From Gemmatimonadota bacterium (GTDB lineage: Bacteria; Gemmatimonadota; Gemmatimonadetes; Gemmatimonadales; GWC2-71-9): DNA of 56,885 nucleotides. How positions within the stretch are numbered: the first letter of the stretch is position 1; each line of letters starts with the position of its first letter. Of this stretch, positions 50,661-56,885 are shown piece after piece. The stretch covers positions 1 through 56,885 of the forward strand of contig JBDHDE010000011.1 in NCBI GenBank assembly GCA_039591655.1, written 5' to 3'. The position numbers were made by a program, and so were the translations under genes. The notes under the pieces are model-generated. The model had not been told where the DNA came from. It did not search any database and was given only the letters and a program-made list of their open reading frames with translations.

Positions 50661-51149
50661 GTGGCCCTGCGCATCGCGGTGCTCACGGTCTCGGACCTCG
50701 GCGCGGCCGGCAAGCGCGAGGATACCTCGGGCGACGCCGTCACAGCGTGGGCGGTGGATCATGGCTTCGAAGTCGTGGCGCGGGAGATCGTGCCGGACGA
50801 GAGCGACCGCATCGCAGCACTGCTGGTGCGTTGGGCCGATGAGGAAACAGCCGACCTCATCATTACAACGGGCGGGACGGGACTGGGGCCGCGGGACATG
50901 ACGCCGGAAGCCACCCAGGCGGTGTTGGAGCGGGAGGCGCCGGGCATTGCCGAGGCGCTCCGGGCCGCCGGCCGCGAGCAGACGCCATTCAGCGTCCTGT
51001 CGCGCGGTGTGGCAGGGACGCGGGCGGCGGCGCTGATCGTGAATCTCCCGGGGAGCCCCGGCGGCGTGCTGCACGGTCTCCAGGTGTTGGAGCCGGTCGT
51101 TGAGCACGCGGTGAAACTCCTGCGCGGCGAGCCGACGGAACACGGATGA
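50661..51149 (+). CDS. mog: Molybdopterin adenylyltransferase MogA/MoaB
   Basis: AVLTVSD, REDTSG, VPDE, TTGGTGLGPRD.TPEA, LSRGVAG, NLPGSP. Confidence 0.9.
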   Translation: MALRIAVLTVSDLGAAGKREDTSGDAVTAWAVDHGFEVVAREIVPDESDRIAALLVRWADEETADLIITTGGTGLGPRDMTPEATQAVLEREAPGIAEALRAAGREQTPFSVLSRGVAGTRAAALIVNLPGSPGGVLHGLQVLEPVVEHAVKLLRGEPTEHG

Positions 51150-52684
51150 CGGATCGGGTTCTGCTGACCATGGACGACCTCGAGACCGCGGTGCGGTGCA
51201 ACGCGGCGTTCGAGGAGGCCGGCTATGAGACGGTGCTGGTCTCGTCCCAGGACAATGCCCGGGACGTATTCCGCAAGGCCGACCCGGACGTAGTCATCCT
51301 CACGGGCGCGCTGCACGAGCATCGAGCCGAAGCGCTGGTGGCGCTGGCCCGGGAGAAGCCCATCTCTACGCTGGGGCTGATTGAGGAGTCCAGCCCCGAT
51401 CCCGTTCAACCGGCCCGGCACCTGGGCCTCACCGCCTGGATCGTCAAGCCGGCGAGCCCGGCGGATGTGGTGGCGGCCTCTGGCCGGCTCATTGCCCGGC
51501 GACGGCTTCAGGAGCACACGGGCATTCTGGGTGAGAGCGCGGCCATCCAAGAGGTGCTCGTGAAGATCGAGCAGATGGCGCCGGTGTCGAGCACCGTGCT
51601 GGTCGAGGGCGAGTCGGGCACCGGGAAGGAGTTGGTCGCCAAGGCGACCCATCACCTCTCGCCCCGGCGGGAGCGGCCGTTCATCGCAGTGGACTGCGCC
51701 GCTCTGCCGGAGACACTGCTGGAGTCGGAGCTGTTCGGCCACGAGAAGGGCGCATTCACCGGCGCGGCGGAGCGGCGCCTCGGGCGGTTCGAGCTGGCCG
51801 ACGGTGGGACTATCTTCCTCGACGAGATCGGCGACATACCACCGGCGCTCCAGGTCAAGCTGCTGCGGGTGTTGGAGGATCGGACCTTCTTCCGGGTGGG
51901 CGGCACACAGCCGATCCGCGTTGACGTGCGAGTGGTTGCGGCAACGAATCGGTCGCTCAAGGAGGCGGTGGTCGCCGGGGATTTTCGGGACGACCTGTTC
52001 TACCGCCTCAACGTGTTGAGCATCTACCTGCCGCCGCTGCGGGAGCGGAGAAGCGACATCCCGATCCTGGTGAAGCGATTCGTGCACGATCTCGCCCGGG
52101 AGCACGGGCGCTCCTTCCGGGGGATCTCGCCTGAGGCGACGCAGATCCTGGTGGACGCCCACTGGCCCGGCAACGTGCGGCAGCTGCGCAATCTCCTCGA
52201 GTCCATGGTGGTGCTGGCGCCGGATCGCCAGATCCAGCCCAGCGACATCCCCACCGAGGTGCGGGAAGGTGGCACGCGACTGCTTCCGATGCGCGTGCCG
52301 GGAAGCACACAGAGCGTGCCGGGCAAGGAGCTGGAGTTCATCTTCCGCAGCCTGGTTGAGCTCAAGCTCCAGATCGAGGACCTGCGCCGGCAGATGCACG
52401 AGGAGCCACGACGGGTGGAGGTGGTGGACGTCGGGCGCCGGCCCGCGTTCGACGACTTCGCCGTGAGCGAGGTGGTCGAGGTCAGAGAGGGTGATGGCGG
52501 TGTGCCGCAGGACGAGCGGCACCGCGTCATATACCGGCCCGGCATGAAGATGGCTGACGTGGAGCGGGCGGCTATCGAGGCGGCGCTGATGGAGACCCGG
52601 GGGAACCGACGCCGGGCTGCGGAAAAGCTCGGCATCGGGGAGCGGACCCTCTACCGCAAGATCAAGGAGTACGAGCTGGGCTAA
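51146..52684 (+). CDS. Sigma54-dependent activator with atypical receiver-like N-domain
   Basis: [37 protein letters not shown], Fis HTH; the N-terminus has receiver-like spacing. Confidence 0.88.
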   Translation: MTDRVLLTMDDLETAVRCNAAFEEAGYETVLVSSQDNARDVFRKADPDVVILTGALHEHRAEALVALAREKPISTLGLIEESSPDPVQPARHLGLTAWIVKPASPADVVAASGRLIARRRLQEHTGILGESAAIQEVLVKIEQMAPVSSTVLVEGESGTGKELVAKATHHLSPRRERPFIAVDCAALPETLLESELFGHEKGAFTGAAERRLGRFELADGGTIFLDEIGDIPPALQVKLLRVLEDRTFFRVGGTQPIRVDVRVVAATNRSLKEAVVAGDFRDDLFYRLNVLSIYLPPLRERRSDIPILVKRFVHDLAREHGRSFRGISPEATQILVDAHWPGNVRQLRNLLESMVVLAPDRQIQPSDIPTEVREGGTRLLPMRVPGSTQSVPGKELEFIFRSLVELKLQIEDLRRQMHEEPRRVEVVDVGRRPAFDDFAVSEVVEVREGDGGVPQDERHRVIYRPGMKMADVERAAIEAALMETRGNRRRAAEKLGIGERTLYRKIKEYELG

Positions 52685-52901
52685 CGGGGGCGGCCTCCTC
52701 CCCCGTGTACTCCAGCAACTCTCCCGGCTGACACTCCAGCTCGCGGCACAGCGCGTCCAGGGTCGAGAAGCGCACGGCCCGCGCCTTGTTGGTCTTCAGG
52801 ATCGACAGGTTCGCGATCGTGATGCCGACGCGCTTCGCCAGCTCGGTGAGCGTCACACGGCGCTCCACGAGCAATCGGTCGAGGTGCACGATGATGGGCA
52901 T
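52662..52901 (-). CDS. Xre/Cro HTH regulator (YozG-like)
   Basis: LTELAKRVGITIANLSILKTNKARAVRFSTLDALC..L.CQPG.LLEY. Confidence 0.9.
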   Translation of the reverse strand: MPIIVHLDRLLVERRVTLTELAKRVGITIANLSILKTNKARAVRFSTLDALCRELECQPGELLEYTGEEAAPVSPARTP

Positions 52902-52911
52902 GTCGACCGTC

Positions 52912-53538
52912 CTAGACCGTGAGGGCCTGGTCTTCGCGCATGCCCGCCCCGATGCGGAACACCTCCCCGATGACGAGCAAAGCGAGGCCGAGGAAGATCA
53001 CCTCGACCGTGAAGCCGAACTCGATGCGAATCTCGACGCCACTGGTCGAGAGCGCGCTCCGGAGGTAGAGCGACTGGCCGAGGCCGAGCACGGCACGGCC
53101 GATGTCGAAGGCGATGACCACCAGACCGATCAGCCGCAGGCGGGTGGCGTTGGCCCGGACGAAGGGATCGCCAGCCGCCAGGGTCGCGAAGATCTTGCGG
53201 AGCTGATGGATCACGACGAGCATCCCGCCCGCCCAGAGGAAGGCCATCCCCATCCAGGCGATCACCAGGAGCCGGCTCGCGGAGTGCAGCGCCAACGTGC
53301 CTTCGGTCCCCCGGATCCGGGCGCTCTCCAGGCCGAGCCGCGCCGACTCGATGGTGTAGGCAGCCGGGTCGAGGCCGAAGGGAACGGCGAAGTCGAGCCT
53401 GGCGGCGGCCGGGTTACCCACCAGGGCGAGAGCGGTCTCGATGGCCACGGCGGCCAGCGCCAGGATGGTCAGGTACCAGGCGATCTCCAGGATCACCCTG
53501 AGGGCTGCCGCGATGGAGTCCTTCCCAACCGGCTGCAT
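52912..53538 (-). CDS. DUF2975-like membrane protein
   Basis: Four TM segments, GDPF...NA.RLR.IG, EVFR.G..MREDQ.LTV; sits directly before the YozG-like gene, a known pairing. Confidence 0.8.
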   Translation of the reverse strand: MQPVGKDSIAAALRVILEIAWYLTILALAAVAIETALALVGNPAAARLDFAVPFGLDPAAYTIESARLGLESARIRGTEGTLALHSASRLLVIAWMGMAFLWAGGMLVVIHQLRKIFATLAAGDPFVRANATRLRLIGLVVIAFDIGRAVLGLGQSLYLRSALSTSGVEIRIEFGFTVEVIFLGLALLVIGEVFRIGAGMREDQALTV

Positions 53539-53642
53539 GATGCCTCCGTGGATGCCGCTGTGAGGCCCGTGAGGCCCGTTTCCGGCCCGTTCCCGAGCCG
53601 GTGGGAGCCCCAGGGCGTCCCACGAAACGTGATTACCGCTAA

Positions 53643-53671
53643 ACGATAAACTTTTATCGTAACACAATCAA
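53643..53671 (-). promoter_or_regulatory. Sigma70 promoter overlapped by a palindromic operator for the DUF2975-Xre operon
   Basis: Minus strand TTGATT, 17-nt spacer, TATCGT; perfect IR ACGATAAA-CT-TTTATCGT (53643-53660). Confidence 0.7.
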
Positions 53672-54010
53672 GTATTGGTGGAGTCGGGTCGCATTCTGGG
53701 GGGCCGGGCGACTCGTCGGATTTGGTGATCTTCCTCACAGACCGGGTTTGCCCTTTACCCGAGCAATAGGCTGTAAACAGTGCAGGTACGGCCAGGGCAT
53801 CCGGGGGGCCGAGCGACCCTGTGGGGACCGGGTGCGATTGGTGGAGGCCTCCGGATCATCCGGGACGTGAGAGTCGTCCACGCCTTCCCTGGCGGCTTTC
53901 CGGACCCTCAATGCCCGACCGGCCAAGCTGTTCACGGAGTGTCACTTACGCCATGGGTGCGCCATGGCGGCCAGAACCTCCACAGGCCCTGCGCCCGGGC
54001 CGGTCTACAG

Positions 54011-55696
54011 GTGCGATTCGAGATCAACGATCGCTGCGTCAGCTGCTTGGCATGCGTGCGGGTGTGCCCCGCGCGGGCCATCGCGGTTGACGGAGAACGG
54101 GTGCACATCGTCGAGGACTCGTGTATCCGAGCCGGGTCCTGCGTCACGGCGTGTCCCCACGAGGCGATCGACGCGGTTGGGGACCTGGCGGAGGCCCTGG
54201 CGGCGGCCGAGCGCGGGGACGCGGTGATGGTGTTGAGCGTGGAGGCGGAGGTGCACTTCCACCCGCACACCCCGGAGCAGCTGGTCAATGCCTGTTACCG
54301 TGCCGGGTTTCGGACCGTGCACCGCGGGGTGCTGGGAGACGAGCTTGTCGCCGAGGAGTACCGGCGGCTGTTCCACGATCCCGGGTGGGGCACGATGATC
54401 CGCTCCACCTGCCCGGTCGTGGTGGAGCGCGTCCGGCATGAGTACCCGGAGCTGGTGCCGTACCTGGCGCCGGTGAAGACCCCCCTGGCGGCCGAGGCCG
54501 CCTACCTGCGAAGCCAGCACGGGCCTGACGTTCCCATCGTCTATGCCGGTGTCTGCGTCGCTGAGGCCGGCCACGTGGACGCAGTCGTGACGTACGAGGA
54601 GCTCGGCCAGTTGCTGGAAACACAGGGCGTGGATGTGGCGAGCCAGCCGCGCCACTTCCGGCGCATCCCGGAGGTGCGCCAGCGGTATGTGAGCACTGCC
54701 GGCGGGCTGCCGCTGCCGGTGCTCGACTTGGAGCCCCAGACCAGCCGCCGATTCCGCAAGGTGCGGGGGCTCGGTGCGCTTGACGTGATCGCCAGGGCGG
54801 TGGCGGTGGACCGGCTCGACCTAGGCTTCGTGGACCTGTTGCCGTGTGAAGGTTGCCTGGATCACCCGCTCCTGGGCCCCCGGGAGGAGCTCTATCTTCG
54901 GCGCCAACTAGCCCAGGACGCGGAGCCCCCCCGAAGCCCCCTCCCGGTGGTGGATCCGGAGGTCGAGGTCCCGGTGGGGGCGGCATTCGAGTTCGTGCAG
55001 AACGGCAAGGGGGCCAAGCCCAGCGAGGTGGAGAAGATCATCGCCGAGATCGGCACGGCCCCGGGCGGCGCGCATTGGGACTGTGGGGCGTGCGGCTACG
55101 CCACGTGTGAGCGGTTCGCGAAGGCGCTACTCACAGGCCGCGCCACCCTCAGGCAGTGCCCCCCCTGCCAGGAACGGAGGGCTGAGGAGGCCCGCCGCCA
55201 GGCGGCCGTGGACGACCTGACGGGGCTCGCCACGTACCGCGTACTCCAGGACCGGCTCCCCCAGGAAATGGCCCGGAGCTTCCGGACCAAGGAGCCCTTT
55301 GGGCTGCTGTTCCTCGACCTGGACCAGTTCAAGCTGGTGAATGACGTGTACGGGCACGAGGCCGGCAACAAGGTGCTGTCCTCGGTGGGCGAGGAGCTGA
55401 GACGGCTGATGCGGAAGACCGACGTCGCCGCCCGCTACGGCGGGGACGAGTTCGTCGTCGTGCTGGTGGGGACGGGGGCGGATGGGGTGAGGCACGTAGG
55501 GGAGGTGCTACGGGAGAACGTGGAGAGCATCGGGCGGTCCCTGGGATTCCGACTGGGGAGCGTCACGGCCTCCGTGGGGGCGGCCACATACGATCCCCTG
55601 GCCGGGGGCCCCCTGGATGTGCTGGACGCAGCCGACAAGGCCCTGTACAAGGCCAAGGCCGAAGGCGGCAATAGGGTCGTGGTAGCGGGTCCATGA
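54011..55696 (+). CDS. Ferredoxin + FeFe-hydrogenase-large-subunit-like + FeS domain fused to a GGDEF diguanylate cyclase
   Basis: CVSCLACVRVCP, CIRAGSCVTACP, IRSTCPVVVE...PEL.PYLAPV, PCEGC, DCGACGYATC...CPP, D.LTGL, DLDQFK.VND.YGHEAG, RYGGDEF. Start GTG 54011 inferred. Confidence 0.85.
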   Translation: MRFEINDRCVSCLACVRVCPARAIAVDGERVHIVEDSCIRAGSCVTACPHEAIDAVGDLAEALAAAERGDAVMVLSVEAEVHFHPHTPEQLVNACYRAGFRTVHRGVLGDELVAEEYRRLFHDPGWGTMIRSTCPVVVERVRHEYPELVPYLAPVKTPLAAEAAYLRSQHGPDVPIVYAGVCVAEAGHVDAVVTYEELGQLLETQGVDVASQPRHFRRIPEVRQRYVSTAGGLPLPVLDLEPQTSRRFRKVRGLGALDVIARAVAVDRLDLGFVDLLPCEGCLDHPLLGPREELYLRRQLAQDAEPPRSPLPVVDPEVEVPVGAAFEFVQNGKGAKPSEVEKIIAEIGTAPGGAHWDCGACGYATCERFAKALLTGRATLRQCPPCQERRAEEARRQAAVDDLTGLATYRVLQDRLPQEMARSFRTKEPFGLLFLDLDQFKLVNDVYGHEAGNKVLSSVGEELRRLMRKTDVAARYGGDEFVVVLVGTGADGVRHVGEVLRENVESIGRSLGFRLGSVTASVGAATYDPLAGGPLDVLDAADKALYKAKAEGGNRVVVAGP

Positions 55697-55830
55697 CGTT
55701 AAACTGTCTTTATGGTGGGCCCATGGTGGCTTTACCATCCAGCGAACCGATTGTAGGACTAACGGAGAACCCGAACTGCCGGACGGGCGGCGATTTCGGG
55801 GTGCTCGCGAGTGAGGAGAAGGAGCTGCTC

Positions 55831-56556
55831 GTGAATGCCAGCGAAGCGAATCTGCAGCCGAATCCGGCACCCGACCGTCCGGCAGGGGGGCGGGCCGACC
55901 CTTGGGGGGTCAGGCGGGCCGAGAACCTGGTGACCAGTCTCCAGGGCGTTCTCTCGGCCCGGGTGGAGGTATCACCCATGGGCGAGGTCACGGCGGTGCA
56001 CGTGCTGACGCACTCCGGCCTCGCGCCGAAGCAGGTGGTCCGCAACGTCGAGAGCGCGCTGCTGGCGCAGCTCGGGCTCAAAGTGGACCACCGGAAGATC
56101 AGCGTCGCGCAGACAGCCGAGGTCAAGCCCATCGAGGCGCTCGAGAAGTCGGTTGTGCGCGAAGAGGCGGCGCGGCGCCACGTGGTCTTCAAGGGAGTCG
56201 AGGTGGTCTCATCGGGTGAGAGCCGGGTCGTCGTGCGTGTGACCCTGCTCGCGCAGGGAGAAGAGGCGTCCGCCGAGGAGGAGGTCGCCAACACTCACAG
56301 GGCGCGCATGACCGCCGCGGCCCGGGCCTCCTTGAACGTGCTCAACCGGCTGTTGACGTTGGGCACGCTGGACCTGGACGGCGTGAGGCAGGTCGAGGGG
56401 TTCGATTCCCGCGTCGTGCTGGTCGCGGTGCACGCCCTAGAAGGCCGTAACAGCCACATGGTTCTGGGCACGGCGACAGTGCAAGAGAGCGCGGAGCGCG
56501 CAGCGGTGCTGGCGGTACTGGACGCCACCAACCGCTGGGTGCAGTGGCGGACGTAG
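55831..56556 (+). CDS. Hypothetical cytoplasmic protein
   Basis: AAGGAG SD before GTG; motifs VHVL...PKQVVRNVESALLA..G..VDHRKISVAQ and A...AVLDATNR look like a conserved family. Confidence 0.75.
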   Translation: MNASEANLQPNPAPDRPAGGRADPWGVRRAENLVTSLQGVLSARVEVSPMGEVTAVHVLTHSGLAPKQVVRNVESALLAQLGLKVDHRKISVAQTAEVKPIEALEKSVVREEAARRHVVFKGVEVVSSGESRVVVRVTLLAQGEEASAEEEVANTHRARMTAAARASLNVLNRLLTLGTLDLDGVRQVEGFDSRVVLVAVHALEGRNSHMVLGTATVQESAERAAVLAVLDATNRWVQWRT

Positions 56557-56823
56557 ACTCGACACGGGTATACGCAGGCCCCACACGAGCAGCGCTGGGG
56601 CGCTGAGATAGAGACCTAGACTGGTCGACGTCGCTTCCCAAGCCCTTGTGGGAAGGCGTTCGACCAGGGAAGGAGGAAAGGGAGCCCCCGGGAGAGGTCA
56701 AGCACCGTAGCCAGGGGAGCGAAGCGGATCGGTCAGCAGGATGAGCGAAGCCTCGAGCATACCATAGCGGGGTATGCTACTCCACGGCGCAGTCGTTGGC
56801 TGCCGAAAGGAGGTGAGGCTGCA

Positions 56824-56885
56824 ATGTCATTCGTCTGGCTCGCCGCTCTATTTCAGAAGCTGGCGTATTTCTTCTTGGCTAACGG
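56824..56885 (+). CDS. Small hydrophobic peptide or protein start (3' truncated): MSFVWLAALFQKLAYFFLANG...
   Basis: Near-perfect SD AAAGGAGGTGA (56806-56816) 7 nt before the ATG; frame is open to the window end; not listed in the ORF track. Confidence 0.6.
   Translation, partial: MSFVWLAALFQKLAYFFLAN

Follow-up and report, generated by a model that had tools for sequence, protein, structure and literature searches.

Toward its end, a contig of a Gemmatimonadota bacterium carries a cyclase gene and a gene for an unknown protein, and it breaks off inside a short hydrophobic open reading frame (ORF). Does this ORF encode a peptide that acts on the turnover of cyclic di-GMP (c-di-GMP), and what controls its translation? 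The stretch analyzed here (the window, 56,885 nucleotides) is the entire contig C11 of a 3.31-Mb assembly that is 95% complete. An original prediction, made from the letters of the DNA, had placed at its end a GGDEF gene, an unknown protein of 241 residues, a hairpin-rich spacer of about 265 nucleotides, a Shine-Dalgarno (SD) sequence, and the small ORF. We found all of these in place, with a spacer of 267 nucleotides (56557-56823). The module to which they belong is real, conserved, and undescribed, and each plausible mechanism for it has a known analogue. Its gene order, the intact HD-GYP motifs of the downstream enzyme, a junction that covers the SD, a long helix around the ORF, the architecture of the peptide, and the joint variation of its tail with the sensor domain are established at the level of sequence comparison. 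The explanation we favor, with a slightly better than even chance of being correct, is that the peptide is the cognate input to a membrane enzyme that joins a MASE9 sensor to an HD-GYP phosphodiesterase, and that its translation is gated by the 241-residue protein. The two coding features at the heart of this proposal are:

55831..56556, + strand: 241-residue two-domain protein, candidate gatekeeper of the leader; GTG start with AAGGAG ahead; no Pfam or NCBIfam match above cut-off.
56824-56885, + strand: small ORF reading MSFVWLAALFQKLAYFFLAN(G), with an amphipathic leader part; the contig end leaves it open directly ahead of the variable, Trp-bearing tail.

As had been proposed, the ORF ends within a few codons in relatives; the peptide of the same-genus locus L031, for instance, closes with ...LAGGASTW. 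When the neighborhoods of homologs of the 241-residue protein were scanned for short SD-led ORFs, a script recovered leader repeats, an SD, and a short hydrophobic ORF after the 241-residue gene at 105 of the 111 non-redundant loci with enough DNA; at L044 and L233, missed by the script, leader and peptide are present by eye. The 116 distinct peptides have 15-35 residues, mostly 23-28 (about 25 codons in relatives), and on this ground we rejected the possibility that the ORF is the signal peptide of a long protein. They share a layout of amphipathic leader, Gly, and short Trp-bearing tail: amphipathicity exceeds that of the peptide's own shuffles in 100/116, Gly stands four to seven residues from the end in 83/116, and Trp falls within the last three residues in 98/116. 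Cys occurs in 10/116, and NCBIfam gave no match for the four peptides tested. In one clade (including L019, L020, L025, L029, and L030), a helix-turn-helix/receiver-like gene is inserted between the 241-residue gene and the leader, 110-750 nucleotides past the former.

The HD-GYP gene was likewise correctly anticipated, being found downstream in 80 of 81 loci that are long enough. All ten downstream proteins tested match Pfam HD_5, and the MASE9 domain (PF20972) scores above the Pfam cut-off in four of the ten, below it in two, and without a match in four; it is also carried by many of the 120 listed homologs of a same-genus protein. Seven catalytic motifs were scored, with HD, HHE, GYP, AD..DAM, R.YR, and E..D each present in 63-65 of 65 full-length proteins, and the enzyme is predicted to hydrolyze c-di-GMP. 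Of the parts compared, MASE9 changes fastest (mean identity 0.33 versus 0.60 and 0.62). At L031, L033, L035, L042, and L049, the G+C content of the HD-GYP gene is 0.54-0.62, compared with 0.60-0.72 in the upstream gene of the same loci.

Does the same gene follow in the source organism? Its assembly contains no full-length match to a membrane HD-GYP protein, no overlap of the C11 end with any other contig was found, and runs X3 and X4 do not cover this end. A contig of run X1, possibly the source of this DNA, is 2660 nucleotides long; it matches window positions 56200-56885 with zero differences at its positions 78-763 and extends about 1,900 nucleotides beyond. Placed on L031, a run contig of equal length (2660 nucleotides) and equal depth spans the leader, which a joint, again at this depth, connects to L031:6992, the edge of HD-GYP codons 276-290. 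We take the two records to be one and hence take the HD-GYP gene, sequence of which this contig carries across the window end, to be present downstream in this organism too; the window's own MASE9 allele is not assembled. The break itself follows a pattern. Among 79 truncated loci, 15, including the window, stop within a 33-nucleotide stretch, 115-147 nucleotides past the P2 motif of the leader and just ahead of the tail (flanking bins hold 5 and 3), as a mixture of alleles in the sample would explain.

Between the two coding features lies the part of the module that the original prediction missed, a conserved regulatory RNA. Its elements are:

56668..56696, + strand: 5' arm of the long-range helix P1, with a purine-rich stretch; the 3' partner lies past the peptide stop, beyond the contig end.
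56718-56725, 56728-56733 (degenerate), 56744-56751 (overlapping P2), and 56764-56770 (in the P3 loop), + strand: AGCG(G/A)A repeats, from the columns of alignment A3.
56749..56820, + strand: three-helix junction from covariation, with P2 (56749-56754/56815-56820), the P3 hairpin (56756-56778), and P4 (56779-56784 paired with the SD).
56806-56816, + strand: SD of the small ORF, AAAGGAGGTGA, with pairing predicted in P4 and P2.

We examined the junction in alignment A3, which holds 53 of 89 non-redundant leaders, hand-picked for spread and clean 5' boundaries. (L029, from the unpublished genome G023, is one row in A3, A4, A8, the P1-arm test, and the split-ribosome-binding-site test, and no claim depends on it alone.) Overall, 92.8% of the cells are paired and 12 of 21 pairs vary on both sides; each measure was reached by 0 or 1 of 500 shuffles, and slid controls drop to 36-49%. 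RNAalifold recovers P2, P3, and P4 unprompted. P3 is the best supported (8/8 pairs), and in P2 a G-C pair is cleanly exchanged for C-G (36 and 10 sequences). The repeats occupy invariant or near-invariant columns of A3 and are retained in distant loci; by itself, the 10-mer AGCGRAGCGG is not enriched in five genomes. The whole is enclosed by P1, in which a GC-rich arm before the repeats pairs with bases after the stop codon: cognate arms reach a mean of -38.1 kcal/mol, non-cognate arms -30.6, and shuffled arms -26.2, with cognate beating shuffled in 72 of 73 loci. Folding energy alone says nothing for the part inside the window (56660-56830, z -0.62, no better than shuffles), so the structure rests on covariation across relatives, which bears out the hairpin-rich spacer that folding energy does not; the complete unit in L031 folds at z -3.47.

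Our model of the leader, R1, finds one copy in the source genome and matches 66 of 151 genomes of the phylum (60/74 in the family and 1/31 in a sister family), as a single copy in 64 of the 66; G098 is one of those matched, and no claim depends on it alone. A search of Rfam returned no match at E<=1 in 53600-56885 and one sub-threshold match among 14 related loci. The spacer is thus a conserved RNA, absent from Rfam, that is predicted to bury the SD. The SD 11-mer AAAGGAGGTGA is the sole copy on either strand of the assembly, and the original prediction had taken its quality as a sign of strong translation. That is doubtful, because the SD is predicted to be paired in the conserved junction; in the window sequence, 15.6 kcal/mol are needed to open the ribosome-binding site, and the repeats are able to pair with the first codons.

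Three other roles for the leader were considered and rejected. A CsrA target is disfavored, as CsrA was not found in the 95%-complete genome (3/14 control genomes were positive) and the repeats tolerate GAA. SARP-type regulators bind direct repeats, and a DNA operator for such a regulator was therefore considered; the repeat spacing varies, one copy sits in the loop of a covarying hairpin, and all copies lie inside P1. Finally, a split ribosome-binding site for the HD-GYP gene, in which an AGGA before P1 would be brought to the start after P1, is not upheld on the tree: the raw association (43/53 versus 8/38) reduces to seven independent pairs with a sign test p of about 1.

The geometry of P1 raises the possibility that the act of translation matters, and not its product. 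A ribosome at the stop codon would unwind P1 and thereby couple synthesis of the HD-GYP protein to the state of the leader. The 3' arm of P1 indeed begins a few bases from the stop, ends near the HD-GYP start, and covers the start region, and 72 of 91 HD-GYP genes lack an SD of their own. One Leu codon is CTC in 52/80 peptides, compared with 43/335 other Leu codons, a bias expected of a constraint at the RNA level, and the length of the peptide varies from 15 to 35 residues. Such a switch would, however, leave unexplained why the amphipathic helix and the late Trp are kept and why the tail varies with the sensor (see below), and at L244 and L245 P1 is followed by a hairpin and T run resembling a terminator, with the HD-GYP start about 360 nucleotides on. 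We judge it unlikely; it can coexist with a peptide that acts on the enzyme.

A buried SD, paired ends, and a small hydrophobic product also recall the type I toxin mRNAs hok and aapA1 (PMC8167048), and the very strong SD fits that comparison. Here, the peptide would damage membranes and be silenced by 5'-3' pairing and processing, next to an HD-GYP gene by position only. RNA data fit as well. In three RNA runs from three studies, chosen using this stretch, contigs on L031 gather at the leader and ORF (5/7, 6/8, and 3/3 of those listed). These contigs are 165-278 nucleotides long and come from relatives, and they give neither strand nor level. Two of them, of 222-223 nucleotides and from two studies, end 11-12 nucleotides past the stop, near the P1 arm (loose ends read by eye), a weak hint that leader and ORF form a discrete RNA; further contigs reach upstream of P1. 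On the other side, neither a sigma-70-like promoter nor a terminator was detected on either strand of 55600-56885, some peptides have 15-17 residues, too short for a membrane span, and the element is a single copy that always occupies the same slot, with a tail that tracks the sensor. In contrast to hok and aapA1, no antitoxin RNA was seen, the signaling context is fixed, and the leader carries repeats of a size suited to a protein. We regard a toxin-like gene as highly improbable.

The evidence that links the peptide to the enzyme is that its tail changes together with the sensor domain. This comparison covered 63 loci, giving 1953 pairs that are not independent of one another, with the tail defined as the last six residues. 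Tail identity follows MASE9 identity with a partial r of 0.45 given the 241-residue gene and of 0.36 given that gene and the HD domain, a value reached by 0/200 permutations. The N-terminal part of the peptide has partial values of 0.35 with the 241-residue gene and 0.00 with MASE9, and the control, the non-coding stretch that separates tail from sensor, gives 0.08. Across 18 disjoint close pairs, tail versus MASE9 gives a rho of 0.91. Two pairs of loci illustrate the pattern: L099 and L105 share 98% identity in the 241-residue protein and 51% in MASE9, and their peptides differ in the tail only; L117 and L127 share 81% in each, and their peptides are identical. The peptide-phosphodiesterase link in the proposed switch thus gains support.

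Could the peptide instead be read by another variable protein nearby? In most Gemmatimonadales loci, a SARP/STAND gene with TPR repeats follows the HD-GYP gene head-on, and its TPR part is the most variable there (identity about 0.2). Following RRNPP-like logic, the TPR part would be the peptide receptor and the HD-GYP enzyme a co-regulated output. The orthologue in the source genome lies on contig C103 (G000:C103:3056-5537), where it runs off the contig end, cut at about residue 826; this contig, too, breaks near the onset of the TPR repeats, a hypervariable part. However, in 38 loci the tail correlates with the TPR part at 0.12 once MASE9 is controlled, compared with 0.31 for tail versus MASE9 the other way. 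Moreover, the regulator was not found after the distant loci checked and is absent from the annotated Natranaerobius region. A TPR receptor is therefore, in our view, very unlikely.

The second half of our proposal concerns the 241-residue protein. A longer reading of 287 residues from 55693 exists; homologs mostly have 230-260 residues. We identified 4169 homologs among 8000 candidates, giving 1509 representatives at 50% clustering; a match, counted regardless of its strength, was present in 58 of 61 related genomes. The named close homologs belong to Gemmatimonadales, and an Atlas search returned Gemmatimonadota clusters only, none with a name. The structure model is of high quality (mean predicted local distance difference test score, pLDDT, 90.5) and consists of two domains:

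55909..56112, + strand: N-terminal alpha-beta-beta-alpha-beta domain, about residues 27-94 (alignment A8).
56179..56550, + strand: C-terminal (beta-beta-beta-alpha)x2 domain, similar to the allosteric domain of LeuA and citramalate synthase (Foldseek, profile comparison).

The N-terminal domain has invariant E, H, K, R, E, S, D, and S residues in A8, and its best fold matches among those listed are ring-building motifs, ANL C-subdomains, and CDF tails. A KH-type RNA-binding domain is not supported, as the conserved columns lack GXXG and the isolated domain has no KH protein among the matches listed; ribosomal S3 appears in Foldseek as weak matches only, to the whole 241-residue model. For the C-terminal domain, Foldseek gives E 5.5e-6 to LeuA and 1.7e-4 to the regulatory domain of LiCMS, and the secondary structure of the model agrees with the (beta-beta-beta-alpha)x2 fold. 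Sequence similarity is marginal (profile versus LeuA-like C-terminus, E 0.001, probability 21%), and a sequence search of solved structures gave one match, at chance level. A stand-alone protein of about 147 residues with the LeuA-like domain only is encoded at G000:C80:2707-3150, and most relatives show similar weak matches. L041 (G029:C1) has a second copy of the 241-residue gene; beta-helix proteins come next, and both leader and peptide are missing.

What connects this protein to the repeats is their distribution across phyla. The complete layout was read by eye at L251 in Natranaerobius thermophilus: repeats, one of them in the loop of a hairpin, then the SD and the peptide, a helix that encloses them, and the gene for the membrane HD-GYP protein. 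At L252 (Subdoligranulum variabile) it can be followed as far as the start of the membrane protein. Also by eye, the layout is present at L244, L245, and L247 (three genomes of the phylum of G061, labelled Chloroflexi) and in metagenome contigs with a protein identity of 28-38% (L163, L165, L182, L219, L233, and L235). Because R1 detects distant leaders weakly (E 0.0002-0.4; L251, L252, and several others are missed) and repeats and layout were read by eye, the likeness of the RNA across phyla is one of shared anatomy and not of scored homology. Several of these loci have features of their own. Sigma-70-like promoter boxes are seen by eye directly past the homolog's stop codon at L244, L245, and L247, which together with the terminator-like hairpin at L244 and L245 suggests a separate small transcript. 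In Natranaerobius, the HD-GYP gene is annotated as two pieces, and a DUF5317 gene follows it (L251:5726-6233). L081, labelled Chloroflexi, encodes a protein 56-58% identical to that of the window, as in Gemmatimonadales loci, and is possibly a misbinned contig.

Among 151 genomes of the phylum of G061, the 241-residue protein was found in six, G061 included (a seventh match is LeuA itself), and MASE9 in 21. We also examined 21 MASE9 loci whose genomes gave no 241-residue protein. A similar hydrophobic peptide led by an SD lies upstream in 15 of them, and 6 have no candidate; the AGCG repeat is absent from 14 of the 15 and present once in L273. L253, whose genome carries the 241-residue protein elsewhere, has one strict repeat. 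Repeat counts and opening costs across these groups were taken from separate scripts. In 6 of the 15 (20 loci scanned), a c-di-GMP-II riboswitch above the gathering score stands directly before the peptide:

L254, L258, L260, L261, L269, L270: c-di-GMP-II riboswitch (RF01786) ahead of the peptide and the MASE9 gene.

L255 and L272 are riboswitch-like and fall under the gathering score; the source genome has no RF01786 match. Since the protein and the repeats occur together, the 241-residue protein is the candidate reader of the repeats. On the simplest reading, the two form one switch, which would have been replaced in other lineages and once by direct sensing of c-di-GMP.

The same swap lends itself to a different division of labor, in which the peptide and sensor are paired as above, the repeats are read by a riboswitch ligand or a general RNA-binding protein, and the 241-residue protein acts on the peptide or enzyme as a chaperone, maturation factor, or ring scaffold. 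A true riboswitch does fill this position elsewhere, the N-terminal domain resembles ring-building motifs, and its invariant His, Asp, Ser, and Glu residues might serve in catalysis or bind a metal. Yet where the 241-residue protein was not found, the peptide and MASE9 persist and the repeats do not, the leader has no Rfam match, and unpaired repeated words at variable spacing would suit a protein better than a ligand pocket. We consider this arrangement, too, unlikely. Proteins that read short unpaired repeats beside a ribosome-binding site, possibly under ligand control, are well known in TRAP, HutP, and CsrA; the present case differs in the word itself, AGCG(G/A)A, whose GAA variant lacks the GGA of CsrA, and in a protein without sequence or fold match to any of the three.

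Put together, our preferred reading, with the 241-residue protein as gatekeeper and the MASE9 enzyme as receiver, would work as follows. By default, the folded leader would be off and translation of the peptide held back. The 241-residue protein would act as an activator that binds the AGCG repeats and opens the leader; its binding would free the start, because the third repeat shares bases with P2, and the first codons are a possible pairing partner for the repeats. Its LeuA-like domain may read a small ligand, for which c-di-GMP or a related state is the candidate because a c-di-GMP-II riboswitch replaces the leader in one lineage. Once made, the peptide would anchor at the membrane by its leader helix, and its tail would contact MASE9 allele by allele. 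A wider claim, whose chances we put well below even and which we offer as tentative, is that of an undescribed, multi-phylum form of cell-to-cell peptide signaling. It would have a c-di-GMP phosphodiesterase as receptor, strain-specific alleles, and a novel RNA-binding switch protein that senses c-di-GMP or a metabolite as the equivalent of a riboswitch.

Several observations weigh against the proposal. For the tail and sensor, the pairs behind the statistics are not independent; the two elements lie 30-60 nucleotides apart, so joint transfer by recombination can give covariation; the spacer control is imperfect, since the spacer is tied to P1; in the same 18 disjoint pairs, the N-terminal part of the peptide also tracks MASE9 (partial 0.67); and no MASE9 segment stands out as the contact of the tail. 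No protease or exporter gene was seen in the Gemmatimonadales loci. For the switch, most of the variation in P4, which pairs the SD, falls on one side, no fold match among those listed backs RNA binding by the N-terminal domain, absence of the 241-residue protein was called from one profile search, and the six riboswitch loci look like one lineage and probably reflect one event. Among loci with a homolog of the 241-residue protein, leader and peptide are both absent from L041, L246, and L250, and L185 has a peptide with the leader core missing. The gap in L185 falls between the P1 5' arm and the start codon, about 830-870 nucleotides past the homolog, and is a natural deletion or an assembly collapse.

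How does the module compare with known systems? In agr and comQXP, an amphipathic leader is followed by Gly, and peptide and sensor co-vary next to a conserved catalytic domain. In contrast to these systems, the locus has no AgrB- or ComQ-like gene, the peptide lacks a charged extension at its C-terminus, and something other than a histidine kinase serves as output. Membership in the agr/AgrD family was rejected, as Cys is rare in the peptides, which end at or just past Trp, and the neighbors are not AgrB. The SHP/Rgg and ComS/ComR systems of Streptococcus likewise have a hydrophobic precursor of about 24 residues beside the presumed receptor, and a short active piece is plausible here as well; those peptides are cleaved by Eep, exported by PptAB, and re-imported to meet a cytoplasmic regulator (PMC7564271). 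Here, in contrast, the candidate receptor is a membrane phosphodiesterase, helper genes are absent from the locus, the hosts include diderms, and control is exerted through an RNA leader.

Proteins that join a membrane domain to an intact HD-GYP, as here, include the MASE9 proteins TM1467 of Thermotoga maritima and HdgA of Streptomyces venezuelae; unlike here, no upstream peptide, RNA, or partner protein is named in the passages devoted to them (10.1101/2021.11.05.467447, PMC6205966). Galperin and Chou, who defined MASE9, inferred that it binds its ligand within the membrane, and their passage on the domain does not name that ligand (10.1101/2021.11.05.467447). S. venezuelae hdgA mutants had no developmental phenotype, for which the authors suspect a missing signal (PMC6205966). 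In Clostridioides difficile, small membrane-associated proteins lie behind c-di-GMP leaders, as in our six riboswitch loci; they differ in their 58 residues, class I riboswitches, and lack of homologs outside C. difficile, and the relevant sections describe no MASE9-HD-GYP neighbor (PMC13724677). Our literature search, which did not extend to subscription papers or the supplements of RNA-motif surveys, found no published description of the peptide, the leader, or the 241-residue protein; MASE9 itself turned up in one relevant paper.

Lastly, we turn to the genes upstream, where the original prediction had looked for the opposing enzyme:

53957..55696, + strand: Fe-S (hydrogenase-like) sensor fused to a GGDEF domain (Pfam Fer4, Fe_hyd_lg_C, FeS, GGDEF).

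This protein retains RYGGDEF, with an RxxD site ahead of GGDEF, and is likely a redox-sensing cyclase of a type common in this family. A GGDEF gene lies directly upstream of the 241-residue homolog in 145 of 176 loci and is absent from distant ones. The cyclase is therefore a usual neighbor outside the core module, and the proposed opposition between the two enzymes is not supported. Farther upstream, a sigma-54 activator with a degenerate receiver-like N-terminus (51146-52684) precedes the cyclase or the 241-residue gene in many relatives. Between activator and cyclase, a DUF2975 gene and a small Cro/C1-type helix-turn-helix gene occupy 52662-53667 on the - strand; this pair was not seen at that position in the same-genus loci L032 and L033.

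The module would explain why assemblies break at this point and why the small gene is overlooked. It adds an RNA motif new to Rfam, gives a testable role to an unannotated protein family of more than 4,000 members, and has a culturable example in Natranaerobius thermophilus. No input is known for MASE9, a widespread membrane sensor, and this locus offers a candidate ligand together with pairs of alleles for the study of specificity. The riboswitch swap points to a feedback loop and possibly to a new c-di-GMP-responsive protein. If the tail is released, peptide signaling would be wired directly to the turnover of c-di-GMP, including in an abundant phylum of soils and sediments.

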